Below, piece by piece: positions 33,332-56,180 of a stretch of DNA of 64,000 nt (position 1 is its first letter; every line of letters starts with the position of its first letter). Position numbers and translations under genes: made by a program. This stretch comes from a virus: the IMG/VR virus record IMGVR_UViG_3300031521_000011, positions 32,001 through 96,000 of that record; one strand, written 5' to 3'. The notes under the pieces were generated by a model. That model worked only from the letters and a program-made list of their open reading frames with translations. It ran no database searches and was not told the DNA's origin.

Positions 33332-33346
33332 TTTTCTTACTTATAC
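33332..33346 (-). promoter_or_regulatory. phage promoter variant GTATAAGTAAGAAAA
   Basis: near-consensus, abuts an AAGGAGGT RBS. Confidence 0.7.
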
Positions 33347-33375
33347 TTGGATTGATTTTTACTTCATTGTATAAT
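33347..33375 (+). promoter_or_regulatory. sigmaA-type promoter of the terminase gene
   Basis: TTGGAT-17bp-TATAAT. Confidence 0.7.
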
Positions 33376-33388
33376 AAGTCTGGAAGAG

Positions 33389-35224: not shown

Positions 35225-35230
35225 GCGCTA

Positions 35231-35259
35231 TTGCCTTTGCGGATAATTGACAGTATAAT
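35231..35259 (+). promoter_or_regulatory. sigmaA-type promoter
   Basis: TTGCCT-17bp-TATAAT. Confidence 0.75.
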
Positions 35260-35268
35260 TGATGAGAG

Positions 35269-36318: not shown

Positions 36319-36329
36319 TTCTTGAGCAG

Positions 36330-36358
36330 TTGCATTTTCCTTTTTTCTGTTGTATCAT
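36330..36358 (+). promoter_or_regulatory. sigmaA-type promoter
   Basis: TTGCAT-17bp-TATCAT. Confidence 0.65.
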
Positions 36359-36413
36359 TGATGAAGTAAAGCAATGTCAATAAAATACCAAAATATCGAG
36401 GAGGAATAAAATC

Positions 36414-37208
36414 ATGGCTGGCAAATATGATGAACTTATCGAAAAGGTAGCTGGCAACATTTTGGCCGAAGCTGCTGAGGAAGATGATCAGGAAGATGAA
36501 GTTGCCGACGAATCTGATGAAGGTGATGAGGGCGACGAAGGCGAATACGAAGACGGCGCTGACGAAGACGGCGACGAGGACGAAGACGGCGACGAAGACG
36601 GTGACGATGAAGACATCAGCGCCGAAGCTGCTGCCATCGACGAAATGGTTATGGAAAAAATCGCGGGCATGGGCGCCGCTGATCGTGCTGCTTTCGCAGC
36701 GAAATATACAGCGCAGGATGCCATGGGCAGGGCAAAGGGTGTTCCCGCATGGGTTCGTGGCGGCGGTGTTAAGAGGACTGCTGGAAAGTATAAGGATGCT
36801 CTTCTTGGCAAGACCAAGGATGACATGGGCCGCACACTCGGCGAATACAAGGCAATAGCCAAGCAGACCAAGGCTGACCATCTGGCGAAGGCCCGCCCCA
36901 GAGCTGCCAAAGAGTCCCAGAAGAAAATGAATGAAAACTTCATCAACCCCCTTCGCAAGAAGGTTTGGGGCGCTCGCGGAGCTACTGCTGCAGCCGCAGC
37001 CGGCATCGGTGGTGGCACATATGCCGCTATCGCTGGATCCAAGAAAAAGCACAACAAGACCGCCAGTGAAATAGTGGGCCGCCTTGAGCAGTACCTGGAA
37101 GAGTCTGAAATGATGAAGCAGGCTGCCGATGAAGTCATGAACGAAGCAGCTGTCATCGAAGATGCGGTCCTGAAGGTCGCCATGGACCTGGGTCTCTTTG
37201 ACGAATAA
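36414..37208 (+). CDS. putative internal head protein with acidic N/C segments and basic core
   Basis: D/E tract; EKVAG, EKIAG, NKTAS and MKQAA motifs; GAGGAGG RBS. Confidence 0.7.
   Translation: MAGKYDELIEKVAGNILAEAAEEDDQEDEVADESDEGDEGDEGEYEDGADEDGDEDEDGDEDGDDEDISAEAAAIDEMVMEKIAGMGAADRAAFAAKYTAQDAMGRAKGVPAWVRGGGVKRTAGKYKDALLGKTKDDMGRTLGEYKAIAKQTKADHLAKARPRAAKESQKKMNENFINPLRKKVWGARGATAAAAAGIGGGTYAAIAGSKKKHNKTASEIVGRLEQYLEESEMMKQAADEVMNEAAVIEDAVLKVAMDLGLFDE
36530..36612 (+). repeat. imperfect GACGAAGACGGC tandem repeats encoding a D/E/G tract
   Basis: repeated gacgaagacggc units. Confidence 0.6.
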
Positions 37209-37243
37209 TCCAGGCATATAGGTTATCAGCAGAATTCCTTTCT

Positions 37244-37277
37244 GAAAGGCGTTCCTTCTTAGGAGGGGACGCCTTTC
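37244..37277 (+). terminator. stem-loop after 36414..37208
   Basis: GAAAGGCGTTCCTTC/GAGGGGACGCCTTTC stem with G-U pairs. Confidence 0.55.
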
Positions 37278-37287
37278 TAGATAAAAT

Positions 37288-39096: not shown

Positions 39097-39100
39097 AAAC

Positions 39101-39361
39101 ATGGCCGGGACTCAAGCAAATAAAATTCTAGGGCCTATCCGCGAGGCGGCCCTATCCCAGAAGACAATCATACTCGAATACCGTGATGCCGATGGCAAGG
39201 TAACACAGCGGGAGGCGGAGCCTTACGAAATCAACGACAAGGGGCTCTATGCCTTTGCTTTGAATCGTGATGCGATTCGACTGTTCAAGATCGACAATAT
39301 TATCAGTGTTCGCAACACCGGACATCCTTTCATACCACGGTTCCCAATCAAAATCACATGA
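39101..39361 (+). CDS. stand-alone WYL-domain protein
   Basis: ILEYRDADGKVTQREAEPY...LYAF.L.RDAIRLFKIDNI. Confidence 0.8.
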   Translation: MAGTQANKILGPIREAALSQKTIILEYRDADGKVTQREAEPYEINDKGLYAFALNRDAIRLFKIDNIISVRNTGHPFIPRFPIKIT

Positions 39362-39367
39362 GTTAGT

Positions 39368-39395
39368 TTGCAGTATACAATACTTATGTTATAAT
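39368..39395 (+). promoter_or_regulatory. sigmaA-type promoter with extended -10
   Basis: TTGCAG-16bp-TATAAT with TG. Confidence 0.7.
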
Positions 39396-39417
39396 CGAAG
39401 CGATGGAGGTGGAAATT

Positions 39418-39576
39418 ATGAGTTTACCAAAAGGTGCCGAAGGTCATCCCGGATTCATAGCGTGGAAAGGCAAGACTGCTACCAAGGCTGAGTCAAGCCC
39501 TGAACCTGAAAAGAAAACCGAACCCGATAAGCAGGTGGAAGCCAAAAAGGATCCGCCAGCCGATGAAAAGAAATAA
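39418..39576 (+). CDS. 52-aa charged peptide MSLPKGAEGHPGFIAWKGK... (not in the ORF track)
   Basis: GGAGGT RBS right after the promoter. Confidence 0.65.
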   Translation: MSLPKGAEGHPGFIAWKGKTATKAESSPEPEKKTEPDKQVEAKKDPPADEKK

Positions 39577-39645
39577 CGGATCATCACGCCAAGGAATTGA
39601 ATCCAAGGGGGTGTAGGGCAGGGCTCATGGCCCTGCCCAATTCGC

Positions 39646-41493
39646 ATGAAGCATAGTATTAAAGACGAGGACATCATCAAGAAGTCCGTAGATGAACTCG
39701 AAACCGAATTCGGTTACAGGAACGCTGTTATCGATAAATATGCATTCGATATCACTATCAACCCAGCTACCATAATCGGTAATACGCTGGGTGGTTTAGT
39801 TGGTTCCTCAATTTCAGGCAAAATAAGGGCGAAGAATCAACTTCGCCAAAGTCTGGAAGAGAGTGGACCAGTAATAAGTATGGGGCGTGATCACGTTGAA
39901 GAGGTACAAAATATCTCAAACAACATTGAGATCATTTTTACCCCCATGAGTACACTGTATATGGTGAAACTGGGTACCAGGACTGTAACCCTGGACACCA
40001 TCAATACAGAAGAAATGGACGATGAAATGTACGACGCCTGGAGAAGGCGCGATGCGCAGTATTATAAAAATCTCATGCTGAACAAGATGATGTCTGAGAT
40101 GCAGCTTGTTGAGCAGATGTATGCCCGGCGCTTATTGCAAAAAAAGATGGATCTTGAGAATGCAATCAAGAAAAAGGCATCTGATGATTTTGAACCAGAA
40201 GAAACTGATTCAGAACTTGGAATCAACGAATTTTTCTCAGGCATCGTCTCTCTTAAGGAGGCTTGCGAGAAGAACAGCAAGATCACCGAGTTCTTGATGA
40301 AGGATGCTGATAACGAAGACGAAATGCTTCTCTCATGGGGATTGGATCGCCCGATTGCAAAGTACGCCGGTGCATTATCTGGTGCAATGCATTTCTTTGG
40401 AATGGATACATCCGCGCAAAAAATAAAGGATATCCAGAGCAAGTTTCTGAATCAGGACTATCTCTCAAAACATCTCAAAATTGTTTTCATGCCTGACCGG
40501 GTCATGTTTGTGGTCGATGATATAACGATGACCCAGATTTCCTCCTTAGATATGAACGAGGAGGGAATTAAGAATTTTAGGGAACAGAACCAGACGTATT
40601 TCCGCGCGATGTTCATGCAGCAAGCTAAAAAGGGCATTGCTGAACTAAAGCCCAAAATGGTCATCAGGAAAAAGGCATCACTCTCCGGTGACATATCCGA
40701 GATATTCAAAACCACCGAAGTTCACCCAATGATATATGCGAAGGTGCTTGATAAGAAATACAAGAACTGGACCAGTTACGATCCAGAGGTTCTTATCAGT
40801 GAAATCGAAAGAGACTTCGCCATTGAGGACACAGGCGTCAATGATCTCGTGCTGAACAAGATACTGACCATTCAGGCGCTGCGCAAAAGTGCAATGATGT
40901 TCAGCGATCCCTTATATTTTGAGAAATGTGTGCGCTCATTGACCGACAAGCCGGTTGATTTCGAGAGATGGCAGCCAGACAATACTGGTGAAGAAATCAT
41001 GTGGACACTCCAGATGATGGATTCGCTCACCCCGGGGCAGGATATCTTCGACAATCTCTCAGAAGATGTTGAGGATTATATCATCATGTGCCTGGTCAAC
41101 CAGGAATATCGGACGATGCTGGTAAAGCAGTCAATCATAAATTCAGAATACGAGCGCCAGTTCTTTGAAACTTTAAATGATGATCTTCTTTTAGAGTGGA
41201 ACAAGATGGGGTGCGAAAAAGCCATCAGCGACGCAGAAGTGGATGCCGTCACAGGCACGAATGAAAGCGTTATCGAAGTATCTAAAAAGGTGCTGCAGAT
41301 CATCCGTCAGAACAGCAAGATTGACTTCGCTGACGTTGGCTACATTGTGCAGCAGGCCGGGGACAAGGCGGGCCTGACCCAGATTATCATCAATGCCGTG
41401 AAAAAGAATGTACGGCTGAATCTCGGAGTCGATATGATGATCGATATGAATGATTCCGAGCTTCACGAGCAGACACAGTTATATAACCTGTAA
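39646..41493 (+). CDS. putative head/portal-associated structural protein
   Basis: 615 aa upstream of the portal; DKYAF, KKAS (twice) and AKYAG motifs; internal repeat IIFTP/IVFMP. Confidence 0.65.
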   Translation: MKHSIKDEDIIKKSVDELETEFGYRNAVIDKYAFDITINPATIIGNTLGGLVGSSISGKIRAKNQLRQSLEESGPVISMGRDHVEEVQNISNNIEIIFTPMSTLYMVKLGTRTVTLDTINTEEMDDEMYDAWRRRDAQYYKNLMLNKMMSEMQLVEQMYARRLLQKKMDLENAIKKKASDDFEPEETDSELGINEFFSGIVSLKEACEKNSKITEFLMKDADNEDEMLLSWGLDRPIAKYAGALSGAMHFFGMDTSAQKIKDIQSKFLNQDYLSKHLKIVFMPDRVMFVVDDITMTQISSLDMNEEGIKNFREQNQTYFRAMFMQQAKKGIAELKPKMVIRKKASLSGDISEIFKTTEVHPMIYAKVLDKKYKNWTSYDPEVLISEIERDFAIEDTGVNDLVLNKILTIQALRKSAMMFSDPLYFEKCVRSLTDKPVDFERWQPDNTGEEIMWTLQMMDSLTPGQDIFDNLSEDVEDYIIMCLVNQEYRTMLVKQSIINSEYERQFFETLNDDLLLEWNKMGCEKAISDAEVDAVTGTNESVIEVSKKVLQIIRQNSKIDFADVGYIVQQAGDKAGLTQIIINAVKKNVRLNLGVDMMIDMNDSELHEQTQLYNL

Positions 41494-41507
41494 AGGGGTG
41501 ATTCCTG

Positions 41508-43829
41508 ATGGATGTTAAGGAACCAACATTTAGAGCAATGAGCATGAGGGAATTCTCAGCAATCGATCCTCAAGCAAAATCGATTGTGGATTCTTATGGT
41601 GTGGCTGTACCTAAGTCTGCCGCCAGAGAAGAAGAAGGCATGAGCAAGTTTGCCTCATTCCGTCAGAACCTGGTACAGGACCCATACCCATCGCCATTCC
41701 TAAATCTTTCCGATACTAAAATTCCGAACAAGATGTCAGAGTTGTTTGAGCTCTGCCGTTATTTCTATATGTTCGACCCACTCATCGCCGGCGCCATCAA
41801 TTCTTTGGCGACGTTCCCGGTGACAAACCTATATCTCGATGAGAGCAAGATGGCCGACAAGGCCAAGGTGGGCGCTGATGGAAAGAAGACTGGCGTTAAG
41901 GACGATAGTCCGCAGCTTAAAACATATAAAAAGACGCTGTTTGAAAACATCAACCTCAACAAGTTGCTGATTGAGATCGGCATAGATTATTGGTTGTATG
42001 GCAACTGCTTCATTTTCGGCGAGTTCTGGACCAACCCAGATACCAAACAGAAGGAATGGCGGCATGTCGTGAGACTCGATCCGAGTCGCATGATTATCGA
42101 CCATAACGAAGCCACCCGTGAAATCAAGTATAAATGGATGATCCCTGAGAAAATCAGGCGCATCGTTACAATGAAGAAACCCATGAGCGAGTATGAAAAG
42201 ATACCCGATCTGGTAAAGCGTGCTGTCACAAAGAACGAAGCGCTGGTTATCAACCCAAACAATATTTTCCATTTTAGCCGTCCGACGGACAGTATGGGAG
42301 ATACGGTTTGGGGTACGCCGGTAATTGCTAATGTCATGAAACTTCTGATGTACAGAAACGTCATGAGGCAGGCCCAAGAGGCTATCGCTCGGGAGCATAT
42401 CGTTCCTTTCCGCATATATTACTTCGAGAGAAACGCTCAATCCGATCCGATGGTCAACTGGGGCGGCGTCACAGCTGATTTTGCAGCCGAGTTGAACAAA
42501 TCCTCAAAAGACCCAAATTACAAGGTCATCTCCCCTCTGCCGGTTAATGTATTGAACTTGGGCGGCAATGGCCGGGCGCTGATGCTTACACCGGAAATCG
42601 AGCAGGTCCAGGGTGAGATTCTGGCCGGCATGAACGTACCTAGAGAATTTATCTTTGGTGGAGTTACATGGTCGGGCAGCAGCATCTCCCTGAAGATTCT
42701 CGAAAATCAATTTATAACCTATAGGTTATTAATACAGGGATTCTTGAATTTCCTTGTCAAGAATATGGCCAAGGTACGGAATGAATGGCATTCAGAGGAA
42801 GACAACGATGCAATTCCGTCTATCCATATGCAAGATTTGAAAATGCAGGATGACGTTCAGCAGAAGCAGCTCATCGTTCAGATGAACCAAGCTAACAAAC
42901 TTCCTGATGAGCAGCTCTATAAGGCTATGGACATGGATCCTGAAAAAATTGTCGCAGGTCTTGAGGCTGAGGCAATAAAGAGGATAGAGACAGATAAGAA
43001 AATGCAGATCCTCAGGATTGATGCAAATGAGGAAGTGCAGGAAGCAGATATTACCGCGCAAGTAAAACTAGCTCTCTTCAAGGAGAGATTGAGAATTAAG
43101 ATGTCTCAATCTACAGATGAGGTGGAGCGAAACGTTGCAATGCAGATGTTCGGTATGGGGGCAACTCCACAGCCACAAGTTGACGCAATGGGCAATCCGA
43201 TACCCGGACCGGTAGGGCCCGGGGGAGCGCCGGGAGCGCCGCCGGCAGGCCCGGGTGGAGCTCCGGGTACAGACCCAACAGCGCCGCCCGCCGGCCCTGG
43301 ACAACCAATGGCTCCTACGGTAGCAATGGCAGACGCCGGTGATGTTCAAGACCCTGCCGCTGGAAAAGATAAGGCAAATGTGCCGGACCAAATAGATTCT
43401 GTGAATGTCGGCGACACCAAAGATATTGATGCTGAGATTCAAAGAATCTCAGCCATGCCAGATAAGCAAAGAGCTGCAGCTTTAACTCAACTTCCAGCCG
43501 CGCAACAAAAGGCAATTGCAATGAGGATGGAAGCCATGAAAAGCCGCGAGAATTATGGCAAGGGATATGCAGATGCCCAAGCCCTCGCAGAGCGCATCGT
43601 AGCAATGCCTGAGCGTCAACAGGAGGCTGCGCTGAACACTATCCCTGTACAGATGAGGGATCGTGTCATGGTCTTTGTAGAGCAGCTACAGATGCAACAG
43701 CAGGATGACCAAAAGGCACAGCAAGTACAGCAAGGCCAGGCACAGCAAGGCCAGGGCCCGGCGACAGTTGATATGCGTCCAATGCCTGAACAAAAACCAC
43801 CTCGAAGGAAGAGTTTGAACGGAGGTTGA
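41508..43829 (+). CDS. portal protein with Pro/Gln-rich C-terminal extension
   Basis: FDPLIAGAIN, DYWLYGNCFIF, RLDPSRM, IFHF...VWGTP and EILAGMNVP.EFI.G portal-like motifs. Confidence 0.8.
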   Translation: MDVKEPTFRAMSMREFSAIDPQAKSIVDSYGVAVPKSAAREEEGMSKFASFRQNLVQDPYPSPFLNLSDTKIPNKMSELFELCRYFYMFDPLIAGAINSLATFPVTNLYLDESKMADKAKVGADGKKTGVKDDSPQLKTYKKTLFENINLNKLLIEIGIDYWLYGNCFIFGEFWTNPDTKQKEWRHVVRLDPSRMIIDHNEATREIKYKWMIPEKIRRIVTMKKPMSEYEKIPDLVKRAVTKNEALVINPNNIFHFSRPTDSMGDTVWGTPVIANVMKLLMYRNVMRQAQEAIAREHIVPFRIYYFERNAQSDPMVNWGGVTADFAAELNKSSKDPNYKVISPLPVNVLNLGGNGRALMLTPEIEQVQGEILAGMNVPREFIFGGVTWSGSSISLKILENQFITYRLLIQGFLNFLVKNMAKVRNEWHSEEDNDAIPSIHMQDLKMQDDVQQKQLIVQMNQANKLPDEQLYKAMDMDPEKIVAGLEAEAIKRIETDKKMQILRIDANEEVQEADITAQVKLALFKERLRIKMSQSTDEVERNVAMQMFGMGATPQPQVDAMGNPIPGPVGPGGAPGAPPAGPGGAPGTDPTAPPAGPGQPMAPTVAMADAGDVQDPAAGKDKANVPDQIDSVNVGDTKDIDAEIQRISAMPDKQRAAALTQLPAAQQKAIAMRMEAMKSRENYGKGYADAQALAERIVAMPERQQEAALNTIPVQMRDRVMVFVEQLQMQQQDDQKAQQVQQGQAQQGQGPATVDMRPMPEQKPPRRKSLNGG

Positions 43830-43836
43830 GGCTATT

Positions 43837-44232
43837 ATGGCCAGCCGCTTCCCAAAAAAGAATATAGCGTCCTTCCTATTGCCGGGTGAGGCCGCAAATG
43901 CTGAAGCAATATTGAATAGTGGTAACTGCATAGTTACCACTATTCGTCCGTATGCGAGTTGTCCAGACACATCGGTTATGCTCTATATCGAGTATGACCA
44001 ACTGGTGGAAAATATCACAGAAAATGACCTTCAAATGAATGACAAAAAAAGAAGGGTTCAGTGTTTTAACCTTAACTGGGGTAATAACCTTGGGAATGTA
44101 GATAGAATACTGAACGATCCAGAATGTAACATCATTCATAAGAAGGAGTTTCCTTGTGCAAAGGGCTCGTTTATATTATTATATATGTATTGGGAAGAAC
44201 CCTTTGCAACAGATGATGTAGAACCTTTTTAG
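43837..44232 (+). CDS. small two-repeat protein between the portal and RNAP genes
   Basis: ILN...C.I......C...S...LY..(Y/W) occurs twice. Confidence 0.65.
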   Translation: MASRFPKKNIASFLLPGEAANAEAILNSGNCIVTTIRPYASCPDTSVMLYIEYDQLVENITENDLQMNDKKRRVQCFNLNWGNNLGNVDRILNDPECNIIHKKEFPCAKGSFILLYMYWEEPFATDDVEPF

Positions 44233-44253
44233 TAAGTCGGGAGGAATAGCTTC

Positions 44254-47200
44254 ATGAATGAACAAGACAGAATAAGGCTGGACCGCGAAGCTTCTGAGAT
44301 GGAGTCCAAGGTCTTGGCGCTCGTCAAATCGAAGTTTCCAATGAAGCTTCAGGGCGGAATTCTGAATGTATCCGACCTGAAGATTGAGCGCCCGGCTGGT
44401 CTGTTTAATCTCACAGCTCAACATAATCTCAAGATGGACGACGGAAGCCTATACGGTGCTCTCCGTGGTCGCTTCAACTTGAGCAATGACAAGGGAAAAG
44501 TGATAAAGCAGACAAATGTGCAAGATATCATCAGCACAATTCCATACAAAACAGTCCGTGGCAGTTACATTGCCGGTGGAAATGAGCGCACAATCTCAGC
44601 TCAGATGCGCCAGGCACCCGGTATTTACACAGAGCGCAATGGAACTGAGGTCATAACCAAGATACGGTTTAATGCAACGAGTGAGTTATGGACCTCACCG
44701 ATCATGATGCATTATGATCAGTCGAAGTCCAAGTTCTTTCTGCGCTTTAAAATCGGAAATAAAACGCTCGATCTGAGCGGCATAACTTTCCTTACTGACA
44801 TCGCTGGCGCATCTATCGGTGAGGTCAAGAAAGCGCTTGGCTCCGAGGCGGTCTATATCGATGTTATGCAGAAGCATCCAACATTCAACGCTACGCTGGC
44901 TGATGTTTATGCCTTATATTTCAAGGATGAGAAGTATGACGGAACAGCCGAGCAGGTTGTGAAACTGCGCGACAGGATCATGGAGCAACCCAACTTTGGC
45001 AACTCTGGCGAAAAAAGAGTCGGAGCTACAGTCGGTGTTGCCTCCAATAAACTTGATAAAAATGTTGTATTGGCTTCAATCACTAAGCTATTTGCCGTAG
45101 CAAGAAATGATGCAGAAGAAGATTCTATCGACGATCTTCGCTTCAAGATCGTACTCAATGACCAGGACTTCATCCTGGGAGAACTGAGCGAAGGCATCGA
45201 CGAGTTTAAGAACAAGGTAAACTTCAGGAGCGGCGCAGACAACGAATTGAAGTTCATCGTTGCTTCTCCGCTTGATAATCTGGACAAGAAGATTGACAGG
45301 TTCATCAAAGCCGATACTAGAAATGCCCCTCAGTCCACCGGTATCGTGGAGGCCCCGGAGACAACAAACCCATTGAATCTGATTTCCTCCACGAAAAAGA
45401 TCACACAAAAGGGCGAGGGTGGCATCTCTGACGAGGCAGCCCGGAACGCTGACAGCGCCAGAAACCTTCAGCCCACTGCCATTACCCGCATCGACCCAGT
45501 TGAATCTCCTGAATCTCAGAAGATTGGATTGGTCCGCCAGCTCGCGCGAAACGCACGGGCTACGAATGGCACAATCGTATCGAAATTCTTTCCAGTAAAA
45601 AAGGGAACTGCCAACATTGATGAAGAGAATATTGTAGAGCTTGATCCGTTTGAGGAATATGACCATCATGTGGCTTTCTATACGCCATCTGAGATCACCA
45701 AGATCAATAACATGATTGCGTTTAAGAAGCCTCTGGTGACAGGCCGATTCAATGGAAAAGTTATGCAAATTCCGAGGGAAGAGATTGAGTATATCGATAC
45801 TTCCCCGAGTGACATCTTTGGCATCTCTGCTGCCCTGGTTCCGTTCGGTGACCACAACGACGGTAACCGTATGTTGATGGCCACAAATCAGCAAAAGCAA
45901 TCTCTGCTGCTGAAGAGCTCAGTGCGCCAGGCTCCCTATGTCCAGGTAGCCATAGATCAAGACAAGAAACAAACATTTGAAGGCCAAATTGGCGAAAACT
46001 CAAACGTTGTGCGTTCTCCTGAGAACGGCGTCGTTGAGTCAGTCGATGGCGGCCATATTGTAATTAAGGGCGAAAGCGGCAAAAGACATTCGCTTGATTA
46101 CTATGACCACTTTCCGATGAACCAGGATAATTTCGCTCATAACGAAGTTCTAGTGAAGCGCGGGGACGAGGTAAAGGCCGGCCAAATGGTGGCTGAAGGA
46201 TGGCACACTAAGGATGGCAAGCTTGCCCTTGGTCTCAATGCCCGTATCGCATATCTACCATATAAGGGTTGGAACTATGAAGACGGCGTGGTTATAAGCC
46301 GCGAATTCGCCGACAGGGTTCAGACTGATGAAATGGAATCCCGCGACATCATAGTATACAAGGATTTCATTGGCGGCCCAGGGAGCGGAGTCAGGGATAA
46401 ATTCATAGAAACTACAGCACAAAGCGCCGGCATGCAGAAGTTGGATAAGGATGGAATCATTATGCCTGGGCAAGAAGTTGGCCCCGGAGACATCCTTGTT
46501 GCCATGCTGAAGCCTAAGGCTCCGGACTATGACGCAATGCGTTCATTCTCCAAGATGATCATGAAGGGCGACGAAACCGAGTTTGAGGATGCCGCACAAA
46601 AAATCGGTGATGGCGAGTACATGCAGGGTAAAGTACTCGATGTACATGTGCTGCCCGGCGGCGGAGATCCCGATGTAAGAAATATAATCCGCATCCGTGT
46701 GAAAATGTCAAAGACACTCAAAATCGGAGATAAAATTTCTGGCCGTCACGGAAACAAAGGAACTATTACCAAAATACTTGGAACGAAGGAAATGCCTCAC
46801 ACTGAAGACGGGCGCTCAATTGACGTCCTGTTTTCTCCGCTGGTTGTTCCTTCTCGTAAAAATGTTGGCCAGCTTCTGGAAGTCAATGCTGGCTTAATTG
46901 CTGAGAAGACAGGTAAGCCATACACTGTTTACAATTTCGATCCAAAAGAAGTGGACAATGTCAAAAACGGGCTTATCAAAATCGGAGTACCAGACGGCAA
47001 AATGGCAGTAATCGATCCTAAAACTGGCAAGGCCTACGAGAACAAAGTCACTGTCGGAAATATGTATATACTGAAACTAAAGCACAAGGTTGATGAAAAA
47101 TTACAATCTCGCTCTTTTGAAGAAGGCGGATTCAACCAGAAATACCTGTCTCCAGAGAAATCCACCGGAGAGGCTGCAGGTGAAAAGGCCAACCCACAGC

Positions 47201-50200
47201 GCCTTGGTGAGATGGAGATGAGGGTGCTGCAGGCCAATCAGGTACCATTCAATATCCTTGAAACCACCACCCTTAAAGGTGATGGCGCTGGCTTTGCAAA
47301 GGATCGCCTTGATATCTTCAGGGCTATGATCAACGGCAGTCCAGAGCATCTCAATAAACTGCGGGACAAGTCCGGCGTACCGGAGTCCTTACGCATCCTG
47401 AAGGACAAGATGTTCGTTATGGGTATGGACGTTAAACCTCTCAATAGGGGCAAAACGGTTCATTCATTGAACGATACATTTAGTGAGCTGATGGTCCTTC
47501 CAACAAGGGATGAAGACATCCTGCGTACAATCGGAAAGAGCAAACGCGTTTATAGTTCAGAGACCTTCCAGTCCACAGACAGGCGGCACGAGAAGTCTGA
47601 TAAGGCTGTACCTGGCGGACTGTATGATCCGGACATCTTCGGAAAAGATGAAGACACGAAGAATGGCCAGGTTGCACGTGAAGCCAGGAGTAAATGGGGC
47701 TACATCGAGCTGGCTACCTATATGCCAAATCCTGTATTGATAGAACAGGCTCAGTATAATCCATATGCATCACTTCTCGGGATGGGTAAGGATAAACTCT
47801 TAAGCCTGATGTCAAAAGACTATGTACTCATCACAAACCCCGGCGATAGCGGTCTTGGTGCAAACACAATCGTTTCTTCAAAGTTAGCTACAGACCTTAT
47901 GATGAATGAGGACAAGCACTTTGAATACAAGGCTGGCGGAGAAGCCTTGATGTATCTTCTGTCAAAGATCAATGTGAACAAGGAACTTGTGGCTACCGAG
48001 GCTGCATTGAAAGCCGCGAAGCTCGACAAAAAAGATGCACTCTTTAAGAAATATTCAGTGCTCAAGATGCTGCAAAAGAACAACATGCAGCCCGGCGACC
48101 TGATGACAAAGATTGTTCCTGTCACACCAAAATACCTGCGCCCGCGCAATGCTCAGGGGCAACAGGTTATAGAGAATGGTCTGACTAAGGTCTACAGTAA
48201 CCTGGTTGATGTAAATGAAAACTCGCGCCTAGCCTTTGAGTCTGGTACGCCAGATATCAAGGCAGAACAAAGCAATGGCCTCTATCGTTCCATGAAATAT
48301 CTCTATGGCGGATTTAAAAATGATCGCTATGTTGATAAAAAGAAAAAGGAAGAATTGGGCGGCATCCTTGATCTCATCGGAAACAAAGAGGGCTTGGTTC
48401 GCGATAAGATGCTGGGCAAGCGCGTTGACTACTCTGGCCGCGCCGTAATCGGTGTCGATCCCACATTGAAGATCGATGAGATTGGTATCCCGGCTGACAT
48501 CGCAAAGACCACTTACAAGCCATTTATCATTAAAGAACTAATCCATCGCGGATATGTTCCAATGGGCGCTGATGGAGAGCGTATGGCGAGGGAAAAGATT
48601 CTTCGATTTGATGACGATGTCAAAAAAGTTCTCGATGACATTGTCAAAGATCGCCCAATCCTCGTAAACCGTGCGCCATCACTTCATAAGTTCGGCATAC
48701 AGGCTATGCGTCCGGTCATTCGCACGACGCAGGATGGACAAGTCGTCAGGAATATCCAACTTAACCCCATGGTCGTAACCGGCTTTGGCGCTGACTTTGA
48801 TGGAGACCAGATGGGTGTGCACGTTCCGCTGAGCGACAAGGCCGTCGAAGAAGCCAGAAACATGATGATGCCCAGCGATAATCTTATTAATCCAACCAAC
48901 GGCAAGATGATCCTTGAAATCCGTCATGAGATGACATTGGGTATATACTACCTGACAATGAATCCAGAACAGACAACTGGAAAGAACATCACCTACTCTA
49001 CATATAAACAGCTTCGCGCAGACTACGAATCCGGCAAGATCAAAACCCGTCAGGCTGTTACCCTTAATGGCAAAATGACCACGGCCGGTCAATGGCTGTT
49101 CTTTGGAATACCAGGGCTCCAGGCAAAGTATCGTAACAAGTATTTCGGACAGACAATGAGCGACAAGTCCCTGAAGGACATGCTACGCGAGATCTATGAC
49201 GACATTACATTTGGCCGCAATGAGACGATGGGCACAATTGATCTATCAAATCTGATGGATAACATCAAGGACCTTGGATTCATGGCATCTACTCGCTCCG
49301 GTCTTAGCATCGGAATCAAAGATCTGGAGTTCCCAGAGAAGTATCAGGATGATATTTTTGAAAGGGCTAGAAAGATCGATGAGCGCCTGAAGGGCGATGA
49401 GGCGGGACTCATTGGCGCATACCAAACACTGGAAGGTGAAGTTGAGAGCGAGCTCAAGGCTGGTGCCATGGGTAAGGATAATCCCGTTACTGCCATGCTG
49501 CAGTCTGGTGCCAGGGGCGACGCCGGCCAGATTCGCCGTATGGGTGGCCTTGTTGGTGTTGGCCGTGATATTGAAAATCATGCAGTCACACCAATTAGAT
49601 CTTCGCATATGACCGGCCTCTCTCCGGGTGAGTACTGGTTGCACAGCTACGACTCCCTGAAGGGCATGGCTGACCGCGCACTGAATACAGAAGCACCAGG
49701 CACGCTTACCAGGGAGCTCTGGTCCGCATATCAAGACAAGGTTATCTCAGAACCGGACTGTCATACAACAAAAGGAATCCTCATCAACAAGGAAGGCAAA
49801 ATTGTCGGACGCTATGCATCAAAAGACATTACAAGCGCCGATGGATCCATAACATACGTGAAGGCTGGACAACCAATCACACAGATAACGCAAACCGCTA
49901 TCGGCAGAGACAAGACCATCAAGTTTATCCAGATCCGCTCACCAGCCACCTGCGCAACCGTCAATGGTCTGTGCCAGAAGTGCTATGGCTGGGAGACCGG
50001 AAGGCCACAACCCCCGAAGCTTGGATACCCAGCCGGCGTTATTGCATCTCAGGCCATCGGCGAGCCGGTGACGCAGATGACGATGAAGACATTCCATGGC
50101 GGCGGCACGTCGTCCAACGTTACGCTTGGCCTGCCCAGAATCCTTGAGATGCTGCACCCTGAGTCATCCAACCTCAACAATATAGCGGTTCTGTCAAAGA

Positions 50201-51144
50201 ATACCGGCAGAGTTGAAGAGATTAAGGATACCGTCAGCGGCACTGATGTTGTTATTGGCAAAAAGAAATACCATATTCCGTTCGATGAGAACGGCAACCG
50301 TAAGCCATTAAGGGTAGTGGTTGGAGATAGTGTTGTTCAGGGTCAGTTCCTTACTGTAGGAAATCTTGATGACCTTGACGCTGCTCGTAAGGACAAGACA
50401 ATGACATCCATTACCAGCGCCCGCCCGGTAGAGATTATGAACTTCGCACCTGATAAGGAAGAAGGACTCAATCAGGCGCAGAATTACATGATTGGCGGCA
50501 TGCAGTACGCAATCGATACCTCCCTGAATAAACAGGACGCTGTTGACCGCCGCCACATCGAGCTGACAGTCGGAAAGCTCACAGAGAATGTCAAAATTAG
50601 CGACTCTGGCGACTCTCCATACATGGATGGCCAAGAAGTCAAACGCAACGTAGCTGACCGTTGGAATGCTGATAATGTGACAATGTCCATCGCCAAACTC
50701 ACGCCAACAGCCAGCATGGATAAGCTTCTTGGAGCTATTGCAGGTGAAACCGTCAAAGATAGAAGCGGACAGATACTTGTAAAGCAAGGTCAGAAGATTA
50801 CCAGAGATATGCTCGGCCCAATCATGCTGGCGACCAGAAACATCAAAGTTACGCCGAGGCCGATCATTTATGTGGCCGAGATGGATTCTCCACAGACGGC
50901 AGCCGATAAGGGCCATGATAACTGGTTCAGCAACCTTGGCCACCAAAACATCGGTAAGCAGCTCTCCAGGGGCGTATCATTCGGTCAAGTGGATAAGCTC
51001 GAAGACCCGCGTGCCCGCATGATGGCCGGCAAGCTCAGTAATATTGGTCAAGAGGGCCATAACTGGTGGGAGAAGTTCAAGAACGGCACAAGCGATTTCG
51101 CAAACACAATCAGTAACAGTCTTCTGGGAATGTTTCAGAAGTAG
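44254..51144 (+). CDS. rpoBC: single-chain DNA-directed RNA polymerase, beta + beta' fusion
   Basis: beta motifs: DGNRMLMATNQQKQ, GWNYEDG, GDKISGRHGNKG, MYILKLKH, QRLGEME; beta' motifs: LGKRVDYSGRAVI, NRAPSLH, GADFDGD, SGARG, CQKCYG, QAIGEPVTQMTMKTFH; one uninterrupted 2296-aa ORF. Confidence 0.96.
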   Translation: MNEQDRIRLDREASEMESKVLALVKSKFPMKLQGGILNVSDLKIERPAGLFNLTAQHNLKMDDGSLYGALRGRFNLSNDKGKVIKQTNVQDIISTIPYKTVRGSYIAGGNERTISAQMRQAPGIYTERNGTEVITKIRFNATSELWTSPIMMHYDQSKSKFFLRFKIGNKTLDLSGITFLTDIAGASIGEVKKALGSEAVYIDVMQKHPTFNATLADVYALYFKDEKYDGTAEQVVKLRDRIMEQPNFGNSGEKRVGATVGVASNKLDKNVVLASITKLFAVARNDAEEDSIDDLRFKIVLNDQDFILGELSEGIDEFKNKVNFRSGADNELKFIVASPLDNLDKKIDRFIKADTRNAPQSTGIVEAPETTNPLNLISSTKKITQKGEGGISDEAARNADSARNLQPTAITRIDPVESPESQKIGLVRQLARNARATNGTIVSKFFPVKKGTANIDEENIVELDPFEEYDHHVAFYTPSEITKINNMIAFKKPLVTGRFNGKVMQIPREEIEYIDTSPSDIFGISAALVPFGDHNDGNRMLMATNQQKQSLLLKSSVRQAPYVQVAIDQDKKQTFEGQIGENSNVVRSPENGVVESVDGGHIVIKGESGKRHSLDYYDHFPMNQDNFAHNEVLVKRGDEVKAGQMVAEGWHTKDGKLALGLNARIAYLPYKGWNYEDGVVISREFADRVQTDEMESRDIIVYKDFIGGPGSGVRDKFIETTAQSAGMQKLDKDGIIMPGQEVGPGDILVAMLKPKAPDYDAMRSFSKMIMKGDETEFEDAAQKIGDGEYMQGKVLDVHVLPGGGDPDVRNIIRIRVKMSKTLKIGDKISGRHGNKGTITKILGTKEMPHTEDGRSIDVLFSPLVVPSRKNVGQLLEVNAGLIAEKTGKPYTVYNFDPKEVDNVKNGLIKIGVPDGKMAVIDPKTGKAYENKVTVGNMYILKLKHKVDEKLQSRSFEEGGFNQKYLSPEKSTGEAAGEKANPQRLGEMEMRVLQANQVPFNILETTTLKGDGAGFAKDRLDIFRAMINGSPEHLNKLRDKSGVPESLRILKDKMFVMGMDVKPLNRGKTVHSLNDTFSELMVLPTRDEDILRTIGKSKRVYSSETFQSTDRRHEKSDKAVPGGLYDPDIFGKDEDTKNGQVAREARSKWGYIELATYMPNPVLIEQAQYNPYASLLGMGKDKLLSLMSKDYVLITNPGDSGLGANTIVSSKLATDLMMNEDKHFEYKAGGEALMYLLSKINVNKELVATEAALKAAKLDKKDALFKKYSVLKMLQKNNMQPGDLMTKIVPVTPKYLRPRNAQGQQVIENGLTKVYSNLVDVNENSRLAFESGTPDIKAEQSNGLYRSMKYLYGGFKNDRYVDKKKKEELGGILDLIGNKEGLVRDKMLGKRVDYSGRAVIGVDPTLKIDEIGIPADIAKTTYKPFIIKELIHRGYVPMGADGERMAREKILRFDDDVKKVLDDIVKDRPILVNRAPSLHKFGIQAMRPVIRTTQDGQVVRNIQLNPMVVTGFGADFDGDQMGVHVPLSDKAVEEARNMMMPSDNLINPTNGKMILEIRHEMTLGIYYLTMNPEQTTGKNITYSTYKQLRADYESGKIKTRQAVTLNGKMTTAGQWLFFGIPGLQAKYRNKYFGQTMSDKSLKDMLREIYDDITFGRNETMGTIDLSNLMDNIKDLGFMASTRSGLSIGIKDLEFPEKYQDDIFERARKIDERLKGDEAGLIGAYQTLEGEVESELKAGAMGKDNPVTAMLQSGARGDAGQIRRMGGLVGVGRDIENHAVTPIRSSHMTGLSPGEYWLHSYDSLKGMADRALNTEAPGTLTRELWSAYQDKVISEPDCHTTKGILINKEGKIVGRYASKDITSADGSITYVKAGQPITQITQTAIGRDKTIKFIQIRSPATCATVNGLCQKCYGWETGRPQPPKLGYPAGVIASQAIGEPVTQMTMKTFHGGGTSSNVTLGLPRILEMLHPESSNLNNIAVLSKNTGRVEEIKDTVSGTDVVIGKKKYHIPFDENGNRKPLRVVVGDSVVQGQFLTVGNLDDLDAARKDKTMTSITSARPVEIMNFAPDKEEGLNQAQNYMIGGMQYAIDTSLNKQDAVDRRHIELTVGKLTENVKISDSGDSPYMDGQEVKRNVADRWNADNVTMSIAKLTPTASMDKLLGAIAGETVKDRSGQILVKQGQKITRDMLGPIMLATRNIKVTPRPIIYVAEMDSPQTAADKGHDNWFSNLGHQNIGKQLSRGVSFGQVDKLEDPRARMMAGKLSNIGQEGHNWWEKFKNGTSDFANTISNSLLGMFQK

Positions 51145-51149
51145 AATCA

Positions 51150-51186
51150 ATGCTGTGGCCAAATAGATTGACTTTGGCCACAGCAT
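51150..51186. repeat. 14-bp perfect inverted repeat (terminator of the RNAP operon and/or operator over a -35)
   Basis: ATGCTGTGGCCAAA/TTTGGCCACAGCAT. Confidence 0.7.
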
Positions 51187-51196
51187 CTTGTATTAT
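51168..51196 (+). promoter_or_regulatory. sigmaA-type promoter
   Basis: TTGACT-17bp-TATTAT. Confidence 0.7.
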
Positions 51197-51229
51197 AATA
51201 ACAAATGTATCAGGGTATGAGTCAAGTTT

Positions 51230-51343
51230 GCGCTGCTGTGACAATCCAGACGTTCCTTAAGAAAGCGCTGGGCATTGCCCGACAAGGAACCTGCTCCTAA
51301 TGCGGCCGCTAGGGATCATAGCTAGAGGGTGTCGCAGCAGCGC
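51230..51343 (+). ncRNA. candidate structured RNA (multibranch) in the HU leader
   Basis: 14-bp closing stem GCGCTGCTGTGACA/TGTCGCAGCAGCGC; inner stems GTTCCTT/AAGGAAC and GGGC/GCCC. Confidence 0.45.
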
Positions 51344-51374
51344 CTTATATTTTACGAAACGGTGAGGGCGGTAT

Positions 51375-51671
51375 ATGGACAAGGTGGTAAACAATAAGAA
51401 CGATCTTATCCGAGAGGTGGCCGCCTCTACAGGGATCTCCATCCGCCAGGCGGAAGAGATCATCAATACGTTTCTTGGTATGATGCAACAGAAGGTCTTA
51501 GCTGGACAGGCGATTTCAATCAAAGGTTTCTTTGGCATGAGGTATCTCCGGGCAAGATCCAAAGCTGTTCGTGACTTCGAGAATGGAATTCAGAAGCAAT
51601 CAGGAGATCATCTCCGCCCAAAATGTAAATTCAGTGAAAGTTTTGTGCAAAAAATAAAGGAAAAAGGGTGA
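51375..51671 (+). CDS. HU/IHF-family DNA-binding protein
   Basis: NKNDLIREVA, ISIKGF and RPKCKFS motifs. Confidence 0.85.
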   Translation: MDKVVNNKNDLIREVAASTGISIRQAEEIINTFLGMMQQKVLAGQAISIKGFFGMRYLRARSKAVRDFENGIQKQSGDHLRPKCKFSESFVQKIKEKG

Positions 51672-51691
51672 CGCAAAAGCGTCACCCTTTT
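51662..51691. terminator. bidirectional terminator
   Basis: AAAAGGGTGACGC/GCGTCACCCTTTT. Confidence 0.8.
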
Positions 51692-51978
51692 GTTTTACGT
51701 GAAACATTCAAATGAAGAACTATTTGCTCATTGAATCTCTTAAGCACATTCTCAAGAGTCACATTCCATACATAATGGTTAATTAACTCCTGCTTGTCGT
51801 CCTGCATTTTGAATAACAAGTAGGCGTCACATGTAGTGTCATGGGATTCCTTTTTTGCAACATCCATCATATCATCCCACTTTAAAAATGCATTATCTTC
51901 ATCCAGCATTTCGATTCTGGTCATGATTAATGGGGCATTGTATCTACGATAATGATACAGGATGTAATTATTTTCCAT
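51682..51978 (-). CDS. hypothetical protein
   Basis: start MENNY after AAGGAGGAG. Confidence 0.65.
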   Translation of the reverse strand: MENNYILYHYRRYNAPLIMTRIEMLDEDNAFLKWDDMMDVAKKESHDTTCDAYLLFKMQDDKQELINHYVWNVTLENVLKRFNEQIVLHLNVSRKTKG

Positions 51979-51991
51979 AGGCATCTCCTCC

Positions 51992-54097
51992 TTAAAATGG
52001 CATATCATCTTCTCTTCCGAGAAACTTTTCCACCACGCTCAGGCTCCTTGTTATTGTCTTTTCGTAATTGAAGCTGTTCATGATGCGCGACGCATACTTC
52101 GCCGACTTGATTCTCCCATCACCGAATGCTATTACGCATTTATCGGTGGTGGTTCTGACGCCACGCCCCACAGCCTGCTTGAGAGCGATTATCATGCTTG
52201 GTATGGAATATTTCCAGAAAGCCCCGGCCTCTTGTGCAAGAACCTTGGCCACCGGGTCCTCTGGGCTGGCGAAGGGTAGTTTATCGAGGAATACACAGCG
52301 TAGACTATCACCGGCAACGTCTACACCCTCAAATAGGGATCTTGTGCCAATTAAGACAGAGTTTGTGTCGTGGGCAAAATCCTTCAGGAGTTTATCCTGT
52401 GGAGCGTCGCCCTGCATAAACACCGTCAGATTCGTTGATTGCCTCAGGCGCACTGCTGCTGCTTTCATATTGTAGACGCTGGTGAATAGACCAAGGACAC
52501 CACCCCCACAGGATCGCACGAGGTCCAGAAAGTTGGAAAGCATGTTGGGCAGGAAGTTTGGCGCATTGCCGTCCAGCGCCCCTTCTGGAAGATACCAAAG
52601 CTGTTGATACTCCAGGTCAAACGGTGAATCAGCAATCATCTCTCTGGCAAAATCCACACCCAACTCAGTCTTGATGTAATTGAATGATTGGCCGGCGGCC
52701 AGAGTAGCTGATGTAAGAATTGTGGTCAGATCTCCATGCTTATCATCCGTTTTAGCATTGCGCATAAAGAAATTCTGACGCATGTAATCATCGACCTTAA
52801 CCGGTTTCGCTCGCAAGGAAATCATGTTGTTGTTTTCCATCTGAACATAGAATGCTGAATTTTTACCTGTCTGAGTACAGATGGCTCTAATATTGCTTAC
52901 GGCCTCAATACCTCGCATAAGGACGCCATTAAGAATTGCACCGACAGCACGCTCGTCGGAATGACTATCCGCAGGCTCACCAAACTCTTCATCATCATCA
53001 GTGAAAAATTCTGGAGAAATCTCATTCTTCATCTCATTGATCTCATTCACAAATACTCTTAATTCATAGAGGAAGTATTCATGCTCCAAAGGAATCGAGA
53101 GGGTTACGGTTCTGGTCGTTGCGGATAATTGAGTATTATTTTGCATGTAATCTGTGAGGTTTAGGAAGAAGGCCTCTGATTTCTTTACCAGATTCCGAAT
53201 TCCCGTCCTATCAACCTTGAAAATATTGGGGTACTTGTTTTCCGCTGCAGACAGCCGGCGCATGAAATTCAGGAACAGATAGTGAGATACTTTCTTTTCT
53301 TGGAAATTTCGGCTTATCTCGGCGATGTTGTGCGCCTCATCACATATCAGCAAATCATAAGGCGGAAGAATTTTTCCTTCTGTCTCAATGTCGGCGAAGA
53401 GGAGATGGTAGTTCGTGATGATAACGTCTGCACCCCGGCATACTCTTTTGGCTCTGGTGTGAAAGCATTCGTTCTGGAATTCACATGACCGGCCGAGGCA
53501 TTCTTCACTATCCGAGCAAGAGAAATTATTCCAGATATCAAAGTTCGGCTTGAAGCTAAGTTCTGCCATGTCTCCGGTTTTGGTATCGATGGCCCATTTC
53601 ACGATGAGGGACATTTCCACCTTATTTTCCGTAAATGACATTTGAACACCGTCAAAGTTGTTTGCGACGGTATCCTGGAGTCTGTGTTTGCATAGGTAGT
53701 TTTGTTTTCCTTTCATATATGCAACACGGACAGGCGCATCTATAACCTTCTCTATGATTTGCGCAATCAACGGCGCGTCTTTGTGGTAGAGCTGTCCCTG
53801 GAGTGCGATTCCGTTGGTAGAGATGACGGCTGTGCGCCCGTGGGTCTTAGCAAAATACATGACAGAGAAAAGATACACGAACGTTTTTCCGAATCCACAA
53901 GGACCTTCAAGCAAGAAGGGTTCACCGTCCTGCAGAGCTTCCATTGCCTTCCTAACCCCTACTATTTGCTCAGGGCGTTCCTTATAATCCATTTTATATT
54001 CGTAGATAATGCCCTCATGCCCAAATACCTTGTCGACAATTGTATCTATGTCATCCGCGTCGCTGACGACTCTCACGTCGTCTGGAAGTACTTCCAT
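51992..54097 (-). CDS. dinG: DinG/XPD-family Fe-S helicase
   Basis: RPEQ, EGPCGFGKT, KGKQNYLC, Fe-S cysteines, DEAH, TSATL, EGVDV.G and KQAVGRGVR motifs. Confidence 0.92.
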   Translation of the reverse strand: MEVLPDDVRVVSDADDIDTIVDKVFGHEGIIYEYKMDYKERPEQIVGVRKAMEALQDGEPFLLEGPCGFGKTFVYLFSVMYFAKTHGRTAVISTNGIALQGQLYHKDAPLIAQIIEKVIDAPVRVAYMKGKQNYLCKHRLQDTVANNFDGVQMSFTENKVEMSLIVKWAIDTKTGDMAELSFKPNFDIWNNFSCSDSEECLGRSCEFQNECFHTRAKRVCRGADVIITNYHLLFADIETEGKILPPYDLLICDEAHNIAEISRNFQEKKVSHYLFLNFMRRLSAAENKYPNIFKVDRTGIRNLVKKSEAFFLNLTDYMQNNTQLSATTRTVTLSIPLEHEYFLYELRVFVNEINEMKNEISPEFFTDDDEEFGEPADSHSDERAVGAILNGVLMRGIEAVSNIRAICTQTGKNSAFYVQMENNNMISLRAKPVKVDDYMRQNFFMRNAKTDDKHGDLTTILTSATLAAGQSFNYIKTELGVDFAREMIADSPFDLEYQQLWYLPEGALDGNAPNFLPNMLSNFLDLVRSCGGGVLGLFTSVYNMKAAAVRLRQSTNLTVFMQGDAPQDKLLKDFAHDTNSVLIGTRSLFEGVDVAGDSLRCVFLDKLPFASPEDPVAKVLAQEAGAFWKYSIPSMIIALKQAVGRGVRTTTDKCVIAFGDGRIKSAKYASRIMNSFNYEKTITRSLSVVEKFLGREDDMPF

Positions 54098-56165: not shown

Positions 56166-56180
56166 TTTTATTTCTTATAC
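56166..56180 (-). promoter_or_regulatory. phage promoter GTATAAGAAATAAAA
   Basis: consensus match upstream of HU. Confidence 0.75.

Follow-up and report, generated by a model that had tools for sequence, protein, structure and literature searches.

To our knowledge, the multisubunit RNA polymerases (RNAPs) studied in phages are either fragmented and sigma-less, as in phiKZ and AR9, or barely cellular-like, as crAss gp66 and the enzyme of P23-45. The family described here, unlike these, aligns with bacterial beta and beta' almost end to end. It is represented by a 2296-amino-acid (aa) open reading frame (ORF), in which a beta-like half is fused to a beta'-like half, in the genome of an uncultured tailed phage from peat, a 168,244-bp IMG/VR virus record (IMGVR_UViG_3300031521_000011) classified as complete by CheckV. 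The stretch analyzed, hereafter called the window, comprises 64,000 nucleotides, i.e. bases 32001-96000 of this record, and the positions given are those of the window unless marked as genome positions. Together with a sigma-70-family protein encoded in the same genome, the fused enzyme may form a transcription system that is carried in the virion and injected into the host.

Described RNA polymerases related to the locus

The described phages that come closest are Salmonella phage Arash (OQ632216; RNAP genes gp206 and gp216, sigma gene gp10; PMC10585845) and the Vibrio phages D69, D148 and D181, which have the same order of portal, small ORF and RNAP as the window. In the Arash/D69 group, too, beta is fused to beta', there is one RNAP set, and the enzyme falls on the phage side of the tree; in Arash, a sigma-70-family gene likewise lies downstream of the gene for a large cell-wall-hydrolase virion protein. 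These phages nevertheless belong to a sister clade with ~26-28% identity to the window protein, and their beta' is split after the catalytic domain, with a separate gene of ~606 aa, whereas it is unbroken in the window and ~75 relatives. D148 and D181, unlike the window, have a homing-endonuclease gene inside the split RNAP locus. The hosts of the group are Gammaproteobacteria, and virion proteomics exists for Arash, whereas the window family is known from genes. Yersinia phage YerA41 (PMC7354516) also encodes phage beta/beta' homologues and a sigma factor, and those of YerA41 are particle-associated, but its RNAP is split into several genes, its DNA is hypermodified and its RNAP genes belong to the early class; its match to the window RNAP extends along roughly half of the query, with 25-26% identity.

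A phage RNAP clade outside Bacteria was reported by Weinheimer & Aylward 2020 (PMC7481178) for the multisubunit-RNAP-encoding Caudovirales (mReC). Like the window, these are IMG/VR contigs whose beta/beta' sequences are recognizable by cellular COG models and branch outside Bacteria. The main text of that study does not mention beta-beta' fusion, sigma, portal linkage or promoters, and the mReC capsids match PF07068 (T4 gp23; VOG11186), while the 332-aa capsid protein of the window's genome matches phrog_2522 and no Pfam family.

The RNAPs of phiKZ and AR9 (PMC7598289) resemble that of the window in being of multisubunit type without alpha or omega, and one of their sets is packaged in the virion for transcription of early genes. 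They differ in consisting of 4-5 polypeptides, in occurring as two paralogous sets, in having no sigma homologue and in being far more diverged from the bacterial enzymes, as against the one chain, one set and sigma-70-family factor found here. Single-polypeptide, two-barrel virion RNAPs for early genes are known from crAss-like phages (gp66; 10.1101/2020.03.07.982082) and, fused to the tape measure protein, from Thermus phage P23-45 (PMC10770324). These are barely recognizable by sequence and have no sigma-70 partner, whereas the window RNAP matches bacterial rpoB and rpoC models with E values from 1e-117 to 1e-167. Among cellular enzymes, the rpoBC fusions of Helicobacter and Wolbachia also carry beta head-to-tail with beta' in one chain, but they are 2840-2890 aa long, have retained the Zn-binding domain and function together with alpha2, omega and the sigma factors of the host; they share 27-29% identity with the window RNAP in local alignments over ~45-50% of the latter. 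A functional analogue is coliphage N4, in which an injected RNAP transcribes the early genes and the host sigma-70 RNAP the late ones, i.e. the logic proposed here. The virion RNAP of N4 differs in being a T7-like single-subunit enzyme that recognizes DNA hairpins, and a second phage RNAP serves the middle genes.

Published work already covers multisubunit and virion RNAPs of phages, the mReC clade and the proteomes of Arash and YerA41. A preliminary description of the locus had put it forward as a candidate new virion RNAP system; it is less new than this suggests, since its lineage has partly been published (mReC, PMC7481178; annotated split homologues in Arash, YerA41 and D69), but the enzyme itself is biochemically uncharacterized. 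In literature searches, we did not find a description of a fully fused chain in combination with a dedicated sigma-70-type factor, absence of alpha and omega, portal linkage and a co-varying 15-nt promoter, and a search for a published phage rpoBC fusion yielded unrelated papers only.

A single-chain beta-beta' RNA polymerase

The polymerase and its parts are located as follows.

44254-51144, plus strand: fused beta-beta' RNA polymerase ORF (P0001), 2296 aa, based on the open frame, the order of Pfam and NCBIfam domains and a junction bridged in three runs
44254-47448, plus strand: beta-like half, aa 1-1065, by alignment to Salmonella rpoB
47449-51144, plus strand: beta'-like half, aa 1066-2296, by alignment to Salmonella rpoC and Protein Data Bank (PDB) sequence matches to bacterial beta'
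48787-48807, plus strand: catalytic motif GADFDGD, aa 1512-1518, by translation and alignment

The encoded protein has a mass of 258 kDa. Pfam domains Rpb2_3 and Rpb2_6 were identified at aa 369-954 (PF00562 E 3.9e-67) and Rpb1_1 to Rpb1_5 at aa 1111-2121 (PF00623 E 5.3e-33), and the NCBIfam rpoB and rpoC models extended over aa 201-1061 (E 3e-127) and aa 1145-2160 (E 2.6e-167), respectively. In a PDB sequence search, beta' subunits of bacteria were the closest solved chains (best E 1.3e-119). When the protein was aligned with the two Salmonella subunits, the boundary between the halves fell at aa 1065/1066 (~nt 47449), i.e. inside the interval of about 47375-47570 proposed in the preliminary description, whose account of a single-chain, bacteria-like enzyme in one ORF, with beta motifs followed by beta' motifs, GADFDGD, a bridge helix and a trigger loop, was likewise borne out by the domain models, the translation and the alignment.

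The double-psi beta-barrel (DPBB) motif of beta, GDKISGRHGNKG at aa 825-836, which includes GRHGNKG and two active-site lysines, is unchanged across 27 family members. In the DPBB of beta', the Mg-binding triad DxDGD is present within GADFDGD, and the bridge helix and trigger loop align at aa 1787-1832 and aa 1922-1972, respectively. The clamp helices and the second Zn site are also retained, although the clamp helices are strongly diverged from the bacterial ones. Missing are the E. coli lineage inserts bi4, bi9 and bi11 of beta and SI3 of beta', the last of which is absent in many bacteria too; these are the sole long absences compared with E. coli-type subunits apart from the four-Cys N-terminal Zn-binding domain of beta', which is deleted in every phage sequence aligned and of which no cysteine is left in aa 1066-1156 of the window protein. 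Rifampicin cluster I carries an 8-aa insert, and several contact residues are changed, namely (in E. coli numbering) Q513E, F514A, D516E, H526S, R529K, S531T and L533K. Judging from this remodeled pocket, the RNAP is likely to be insensitive to rifampicin.

We consider it fairly probable, jointly with the transcription programme set out below, that the product of the ORF is, in one polypeptide, the entire catalytic core of a multisubunit RNA polymerase of bacterial type, belonging to an old phage-specific lineage.

The first residue of the catalytic motif varies. Position 1512 (48787-48789) is Gly in the window RNAP, Ser in the closest relative (P0003, 70% identical) and Asn in at least 90% of the family; in E. 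coli, the Asn of NADFDGD helps in recognition of the ribose of the nucleoside triphosphate.

Homologues and phylogeny

The sequence is present in many peat-metagenome runs, with no RNA run among the public ones listed, and separately assembled Logan contigs of three independent runs cross the junction of the two halves without an indel, joint or loose end.

46154-47997: Logan contig of run X2, spanning the junction
47018-47860: Logan contig of run X3, spanning the junction
47241-47716: Logan contig of run X4, spanning the junction

A search of 5.8 billion proteins yielded ~75 homologue clusters of 2215-2339 aa, which align over nearly their full length at 31-70% identity. The contigs that carry them are as long as 180 kb; two clusters come from Priestia megaterium assemblies, in which the gene lies on contigs of 175-180 kb (P0053, P0058). 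That the fusion might be an assembly artefact, as the preliminary description had allowed for, is refuted by the three bridging runs and by the shared architecture of these clusters. Identity of the family to bacterial enzymes is at most ~30%. Megablast of the RNAP gene against 50,697 phage records gave zero matches, the collection holds no cultured member of this RNAP family, and tblastn with the terminase large subunit (TerL) revealed no cultured close relative in it, the best match being ~25% identical.

The preliminary description had also suggested a phylogeny with cellular RpoB/RpoC. The tree was calculated without an outgroup from 29 sequences and 2055 columns (LG+G4; support by the Shimodaira-Hasegawa-like approximate likelihood ratio test, SH-aLRT). 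Its nine cellular sequences, a narrow sample of Bacteria, comprise Salmonella beta plus beta', the Helicobacter and Wolbachia fusions, fusions from the candidate phyla radiation (CPR) and an alpha-beta-beta' fusion, with Bacillota and Archaea left out. A branch with 100% SH-aLRT support separates all nine from all phage sequences, and the Helicobacter and Wolbachia fusions group with the Salmonella and CPR sequences, apart from the window protein. The window's family, with 13 sequences, forms a single group (100% support), whose sister group comprises a second fused family (~2020-2150 aa) together with Arash and Vibrio D69. This second, fully fused family consists of P0092, P0093, P0096, P0109 and P0111, on contigs of up to ~200 kb; since it groups with the split enzymes of Arash and D69, the state of fusion varies within the sister clade.

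Two other kinds of architecture were seen among the sequences. The earliest branch of the cellular clade, P0106 (2236 aa, from a 22-kb metagenome contig), has PF01000 and PF01193 ahead of beta-beta' and may be an alpha-beta-beta' triple fusion. The relatives P0028, P0077 and P0120 reach 2500-2870 aa through homing-endonuclease/LAGLIDADG inserts, which are probably inteins.

A sigma-70-family protein and the absence of alpha and omega genes

The preliminary description had considered that the enzyme might work without alpha and without sigma. As to the latter, the genome and all five complete relatives each encode a sigma-70-family protein, in exactly one copy (6/6), and this part of the proposal was not upheld.

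genome 114137-114979 (L006:9137-9979), plus strand: sigma-70-family protein, 280 aa, 18 kb past the end of the window, in the tail/baseplate module

The ORF lies between the gene for a 1410-aa hydrolase-bearing protein and a baseplate wedge gene, an arrangement that mirrors gp8-gp9-gp10 of Arash, and its product matches Arash gp10 (E 1.3e-8). Pfam found nothing in the lone 280-aa ORF; its identification comes from sigma-70 NCBIfam models (E 7e-7), from the profile of its family and from its fold. The family consists of 51 clusters in an exhaustive HMMER search, compared with just two proteins in a word-indexed search, and in PDB its profile matches sigma-70 factors only, over regions 2-4 (best E 6.7e-16). 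The AlphaFold2 model has a predicted local distance difference test (pLDDT) value of 85.9, and the 50 Foldseek matches listed for it are all models or complexes of RNA polymerase; the titles of 48 name a sigma-factor chain.

A complex of RNAP aa 1140-1560 with the 280-aa sigma was predicted alongside three controls. The docking score was 0.79, as against 0.00 for the best control; this mark was attained for 58 of 80 solved complexes, as compared with 2 of 110 pairs that were mismatched. Between runs, at least 32% of the contacts recur, with a partner pLDDT of 65 or more, and the predicted interface joins RNAP 1316-1346, which aligns to the beta' clamp helices, to sigma 36-77. Because sigma-beta' complexes have already been solved, this pass may reflect memory, and the model shows the canonical sigma-clamp-helix interface as retained, rather than proving that the pair binds.

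The sigma protein begins MHYKEYEIEKLA and carries in this segment an EKxA tag as found in head proteins (IEKLA at 8-12). Thirteen proteins, nearly all of them encoded on the plus strand, have the pattern EK[ILVTF][AS] within their first 45 aa, compared with 4.3 expected. Besides sigma, these include the major capsid protein, and the tag is often duplicated as MEKISMEKIA. Examples of the form (M)EK(I/L/T)(A/S) are:

genome 96243-97241: capsid gene, tagged
8859-9206: tagged ORF
11665-12462: tagged ORF

The tag may be a cleavage site for a prohead protease or a capsid-targeting signal. If so, it would support the packaging of sigma.

The other half of the proposal held as far as the genes are concerned. 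Neither alpha (PF01000, PF01193) nor omega (PF01192) was found in the phage genome, while the positive controls were recovered in 14/14 reference genomes, and PF01193 was not found in the five complete relatives either. Likewise, a six-frame search of the genome with profiles for either barrel and for the bridge-helix/trigger-loop region detected no second multisubunit RNAP gene. Genome searches for PF00940 (T7-like RNAP) and PF07068 (gp23 capsid) were blank as well, but so were their controls, and these blanks carry no information.

Linkage of the polymerase to the portal gene

The polymerase gene belongs to a plus-strand block of packaging and portal genes.

33389-35224, plus strand: TerL, start of the packaging/portal/RNAP block (phrog_675 E 1.5e-53; syntenic in L008 and L009)
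39646-41493, plus strand: conserved 615-aa ORF upstream of the portal (homologues at the same position in L007-L009, E 6e-111 to 1e-47)
41508-43829, plus strand: portal protein, 773 aa (phrog_16240 E 9e-11; Arash gp204 "portal protein" E 1e-38)
43837-44232, plus strand: 131-aa ORF separating the portal and RNAP genes, of which the position alone is conserved
51375-51671, plus strand: 98-aa ORF following the RNAP gene; a sigmaA-like box of its own lies at 51168-51196
51662-51691, either strand: bidirectional intrinsic terminator with a perfect 13-bp stem, where the RNAP unit and the helicase unit converge

The order leading to the RNAP is TerL, three ORFs, the 615-aa ORF, the portal gene and the 131-aa ORF, and beyond the terminator lies a converging minus-strand unit that begins with an XPD-like helicase. 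The preliminary description had made the RNAP the last gene of the plus-strand unit containing the portal; the portal is indeed part of it, but the 98-aa ORF follows the RNAP before the terminator. In L007-L009, the gene that precedes the RNAP encodes a homologue of the portal protein, as does the gene in portal position in D69. The 131-aa ORF had no sequence match in the searches run, and its place is filled by ORFs of 61-106 aa in most relatives examined and by gp205 in Arash.

According to tblastn, three relatives with 33-41% identical RNAPs share the order of the 615-aa ORF, the portal, the RNAP and two converging minus-strand genes; one of the three is a contig from a P. megaterium assembly. 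The XPD-like helicase was matched in two of them. Five further IMG/VR relatives show the same ORF layout. As suggested in the preliminary description, homologues were also sought beside portal genes, and the portal is followed by the RNAP, mostly with a small ORF between them, in five relatives with 32-42% RNAP identity. The adjacency extends to Arash (gp204, gp205, gp206) and Vibrio phage D69, both in the sister RNAP clade. Since it holds in both groups, the portal-RNAP linkage is older than the divergence of the two clades.

A single tRNA-Met (CAT) gene is located elsewhere in the window, at 27285-27362 on the minus strand.

Two classes of promoters

The preliminary description had distinguished two promoter classes. 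Both were recovered, namely a 15-nt phage motif and, by position, sigmaA-like boxes before plus-strand structural genes.

1859-58760, minus strand: 17 copies of GTATAAG-NN-ATAAAA, those nearest to the RNAP at 33332-33346 and 56166-56180
39367-39395, plus strand: sigmaA-like promoter candidate TTTGCA-17-TATAAT with an upstream TG (extended -10), heading the 615-aa ORF/portal/RNAP unit (consensus scan)

The 17 copies of the first motif in the window compare with 0.09 expected, and all 32 copies in the genome are on the minus strand. They usually come after a terminator-like T-run and just upstream of a GGAGG ribosome-binding site, which lies within a few bases of most copies in the printed contexts. 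Because the motif abuts this site in some copies, transcription must start within the A-run. The information content is limited to the 15 nt, with no conserved -35 element, and TATAAG takes the place of the -10 box, with G at -7, where sigma-70 and sigmaA require T. The genes under the motif form small cassettes.

The motif varies between relatives. In forward/reverse orientation, it was found 40/0 times in G001, 25/1 times in G002 as GTATAAGAYATTAAA (...ATTAAA) and 20/1 times in G005 as GYATAAG, with many GCATAAG, and it is absent from G003 and G004, two members of a deeper Priestia-type subclade. Drift of this kind, which follows the phage lineage, is more readily explained if the motif is recognized by a factor of the phage itself than by a housekeeping sigma of the host. 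Upstream of the portal and RNAP genes, scans of the window and of five relative loci revealed no copy; L012 has one copy between the two genes, on the reverse strand.

TTGnnn-17-TATAAT-like boxes, on the other hand, precede the plus-strand morphogenesis genes, i.e. terminase, portal, capsid and tail genes. Matches of sigma-70 type in 33000-52500 are not above shuffles (38 vs 29.1, sd 5.9), so that this host-like class rests on its position before genes.

One small ORF stands next to both kinds of promoter.

33103-33324, minus strand: 73-aa ORF with only a weak sigma region-4-like helix-turn-helix (HTH) (PF04545 E 0.002; NCBIfam sigma models E ~0.007)

It is situated directly downstream of an early motif copy, divergent from the terminase promoter, and could encode a small transcription switch factor.

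Proposed transcription programme and alternatives

We consider it fairly probable that the phage follows an N4-like programme carried out by a bacterial-type enzyme, in which core and sigma are made with the virion proteins, packaged, injected and directed to early promoters. The RNAP gene would be expressed late, with the portal and morphogenesis genes, from sigmaA-like promoters, and the 258-kDa enzyme would then go into the capsid. The single sigma-70-family factor, encoded in the tail/baseplate module and bearing an EK(I/L)A tag as the major capsid protein does, would enter as well, and both would be ejected into the next host. There, a holoenzyme of beta-beta' and sigma, without phage alpha or omega and predicted to be rifampicin-insensitive, would initiate at the -10-like, -35-less GTATAAG-NN-ATAAAA, starting in the A-run, and transcribe ~32 small early cassettes in which terminator, promoter and ribosome-binding site follow each other. 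The late genes would subsequently be read from the host-like promoters, as in N4. Packaging, timing, the assignment of polymerases to promoters and the pairing of sigma with the core are what we infer in this programme. A more specific form, in which the beta-beta' chain and sigma make up a minimal self-sufficient holoenzyme without alpha, omega or Zn finger that is packaged, injected and reads the -35-less 15-nt promoter, leaving late transcription to the host RNAP, is plausible but tentative.

Gene position and the proteomics of distant isolates suggest that the RNAP is probably carried in the virion (PMC10585845, PMC7354516). In Arash, gp206 (1525 aa, beta plus N-terminal beta') gave the most spectra in the virion proteome, and gp216 (C-terminal beta') and sigma gp10 were detected in virion mass spectrometry (PMC10585845), while RNAP subunits and a sigma are particle-associated in YerA41 (PMC7354516).

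Several observations weigh against the N4-like programme. The support for packaging comes by analogy from distant isolates and not from the window's own family (31-70% identity): the RNAPs of Arash and YerA41, with only ~27% identity and beta' in separate pieces, fall in a sister clade. Among the 116 "virion" proteins of the Arash preparation are ribonucleotide reductases (PMC10585845), and with metabolic enzymes on the list, carry-over is likely there. RNA-seq classed the YerA41 RNAP genes as early (PMC7354516). In the window's genome, the N-terminus of the RNAP has no EKxA tag, and in front of the RNAP operon stands a good sigmaA-like promoter, readable by host RNAP straight after injection. 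In G005 (L024 13116-13425), copies of the 15-nt motif share the strand of the RNAP gene, which they closely follow, and precede small ORFs; strand separation is therefore not universal. Use of host alpha is also possible, the independence of the RNAP from it being our inference.

This last point leads to an alternative that is compatible with the N4-like programme, i.e. that assembly or activity of the enzyme continues to depend on alpha, and perhaps omega, from the host. The fusions of Helicobacter and Wolbachia retain alpha, and the window enzyme keeps the whole bacterial beta/beta' framework apart from the lineage inserts and the Zn domain. Yet the searches of complete genomes found no alpha or omega, an injected enzyme would have to bring host alpha from the previous cell, and the multisubunit RNAPs of jumbo phages work without either subunit (PMC7598289). 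We regard such a need as somewhat unlikely.

The main rival to packaging is a T7-like course, in which the host sigmaA holoenzyme makes RNAP and sigma after injection, and these then read the 15-nt promoters without the RNAP ever having been packaged. It would account for the sigmaA-like promoter with extended -10 before the portal-RNAP unit and for an RNAP without the tag of the capsid protein and sigma, and it agrees with the early RNA-seq class of the YerA41 genes and with an over-inclusive Arash list. However, terminase, portal, capsid and tail genes are preceded by host-like boxes of the same kind, so that host RNAP would make structural proteins first, whereas the 15-nt motif stands before small cassettes, as is typical of early takeover genes. 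The adjacency of portal and RNAP is moreover kept across two deep clades, and gp206 had the top spectral count in the Arash particle preparation. On balance, we deem the T7-like course unlikely.

A further rival concerns the partner of sigma. Serving the host core RNAP is the usual role of phage-encoded sigma factors, examples being SPO1 gp28 and T4 gp55, and the sigma of the window's genome could do the same at one promoter class while the fused polymerase uses another factor or none. The phage RNAPs of phiKZ/AR9 type use non-sigma factors (PMC7598289), and memory of solved sigma-beta' complexes could explain the docking pass. This reading is set against the one-to-one co-occurrence of sigma and fused RNAP in 6/6 complete genomes, the particle association of homologues of both in Arash and YerA41, the predicted interface between clamp helices and sigma region 2 with controls at 0.00, and the divergence of the clamp helices, as expected with a private partner; we hold it to be quite improbable. 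Lastly, recent capture of a host rpoB-rpoC pair or an assembly or frameshift artefact, conceivable inasmuch as these bacterial genes adjoin and a one-base error could fuse them, is of negligible probability and was ruled out by the ~75 clusters with their common length and architecture, by the three junction-crossing runs without indels and by the tree, with a long, fully supported branch to all bacterial sequences and an identity to them of no more than ~30%.

Implications

If the self-sufficient form of the programme is true, the enzyme would be the first sigma-dependent virion RNAP and a natural test of the dispensability of alpha for a bacterial-type core. If the N4-like programme is true, it would be, with two polypeptides, the simplest bacterial-type holoenzyme known, and a tractable system in which to ask what alpha and omega are needed for. 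The compact 15-nt promoter and its sigma, as a pair that co-varies between lineages, would be useful for orthogonal transcription. The family is large and has contigs in Priestia megaterium assemblies, and a culturable member may therefore be within reach. Beyond this, the family bears on the proposed ancient origin of phage RNAPs.

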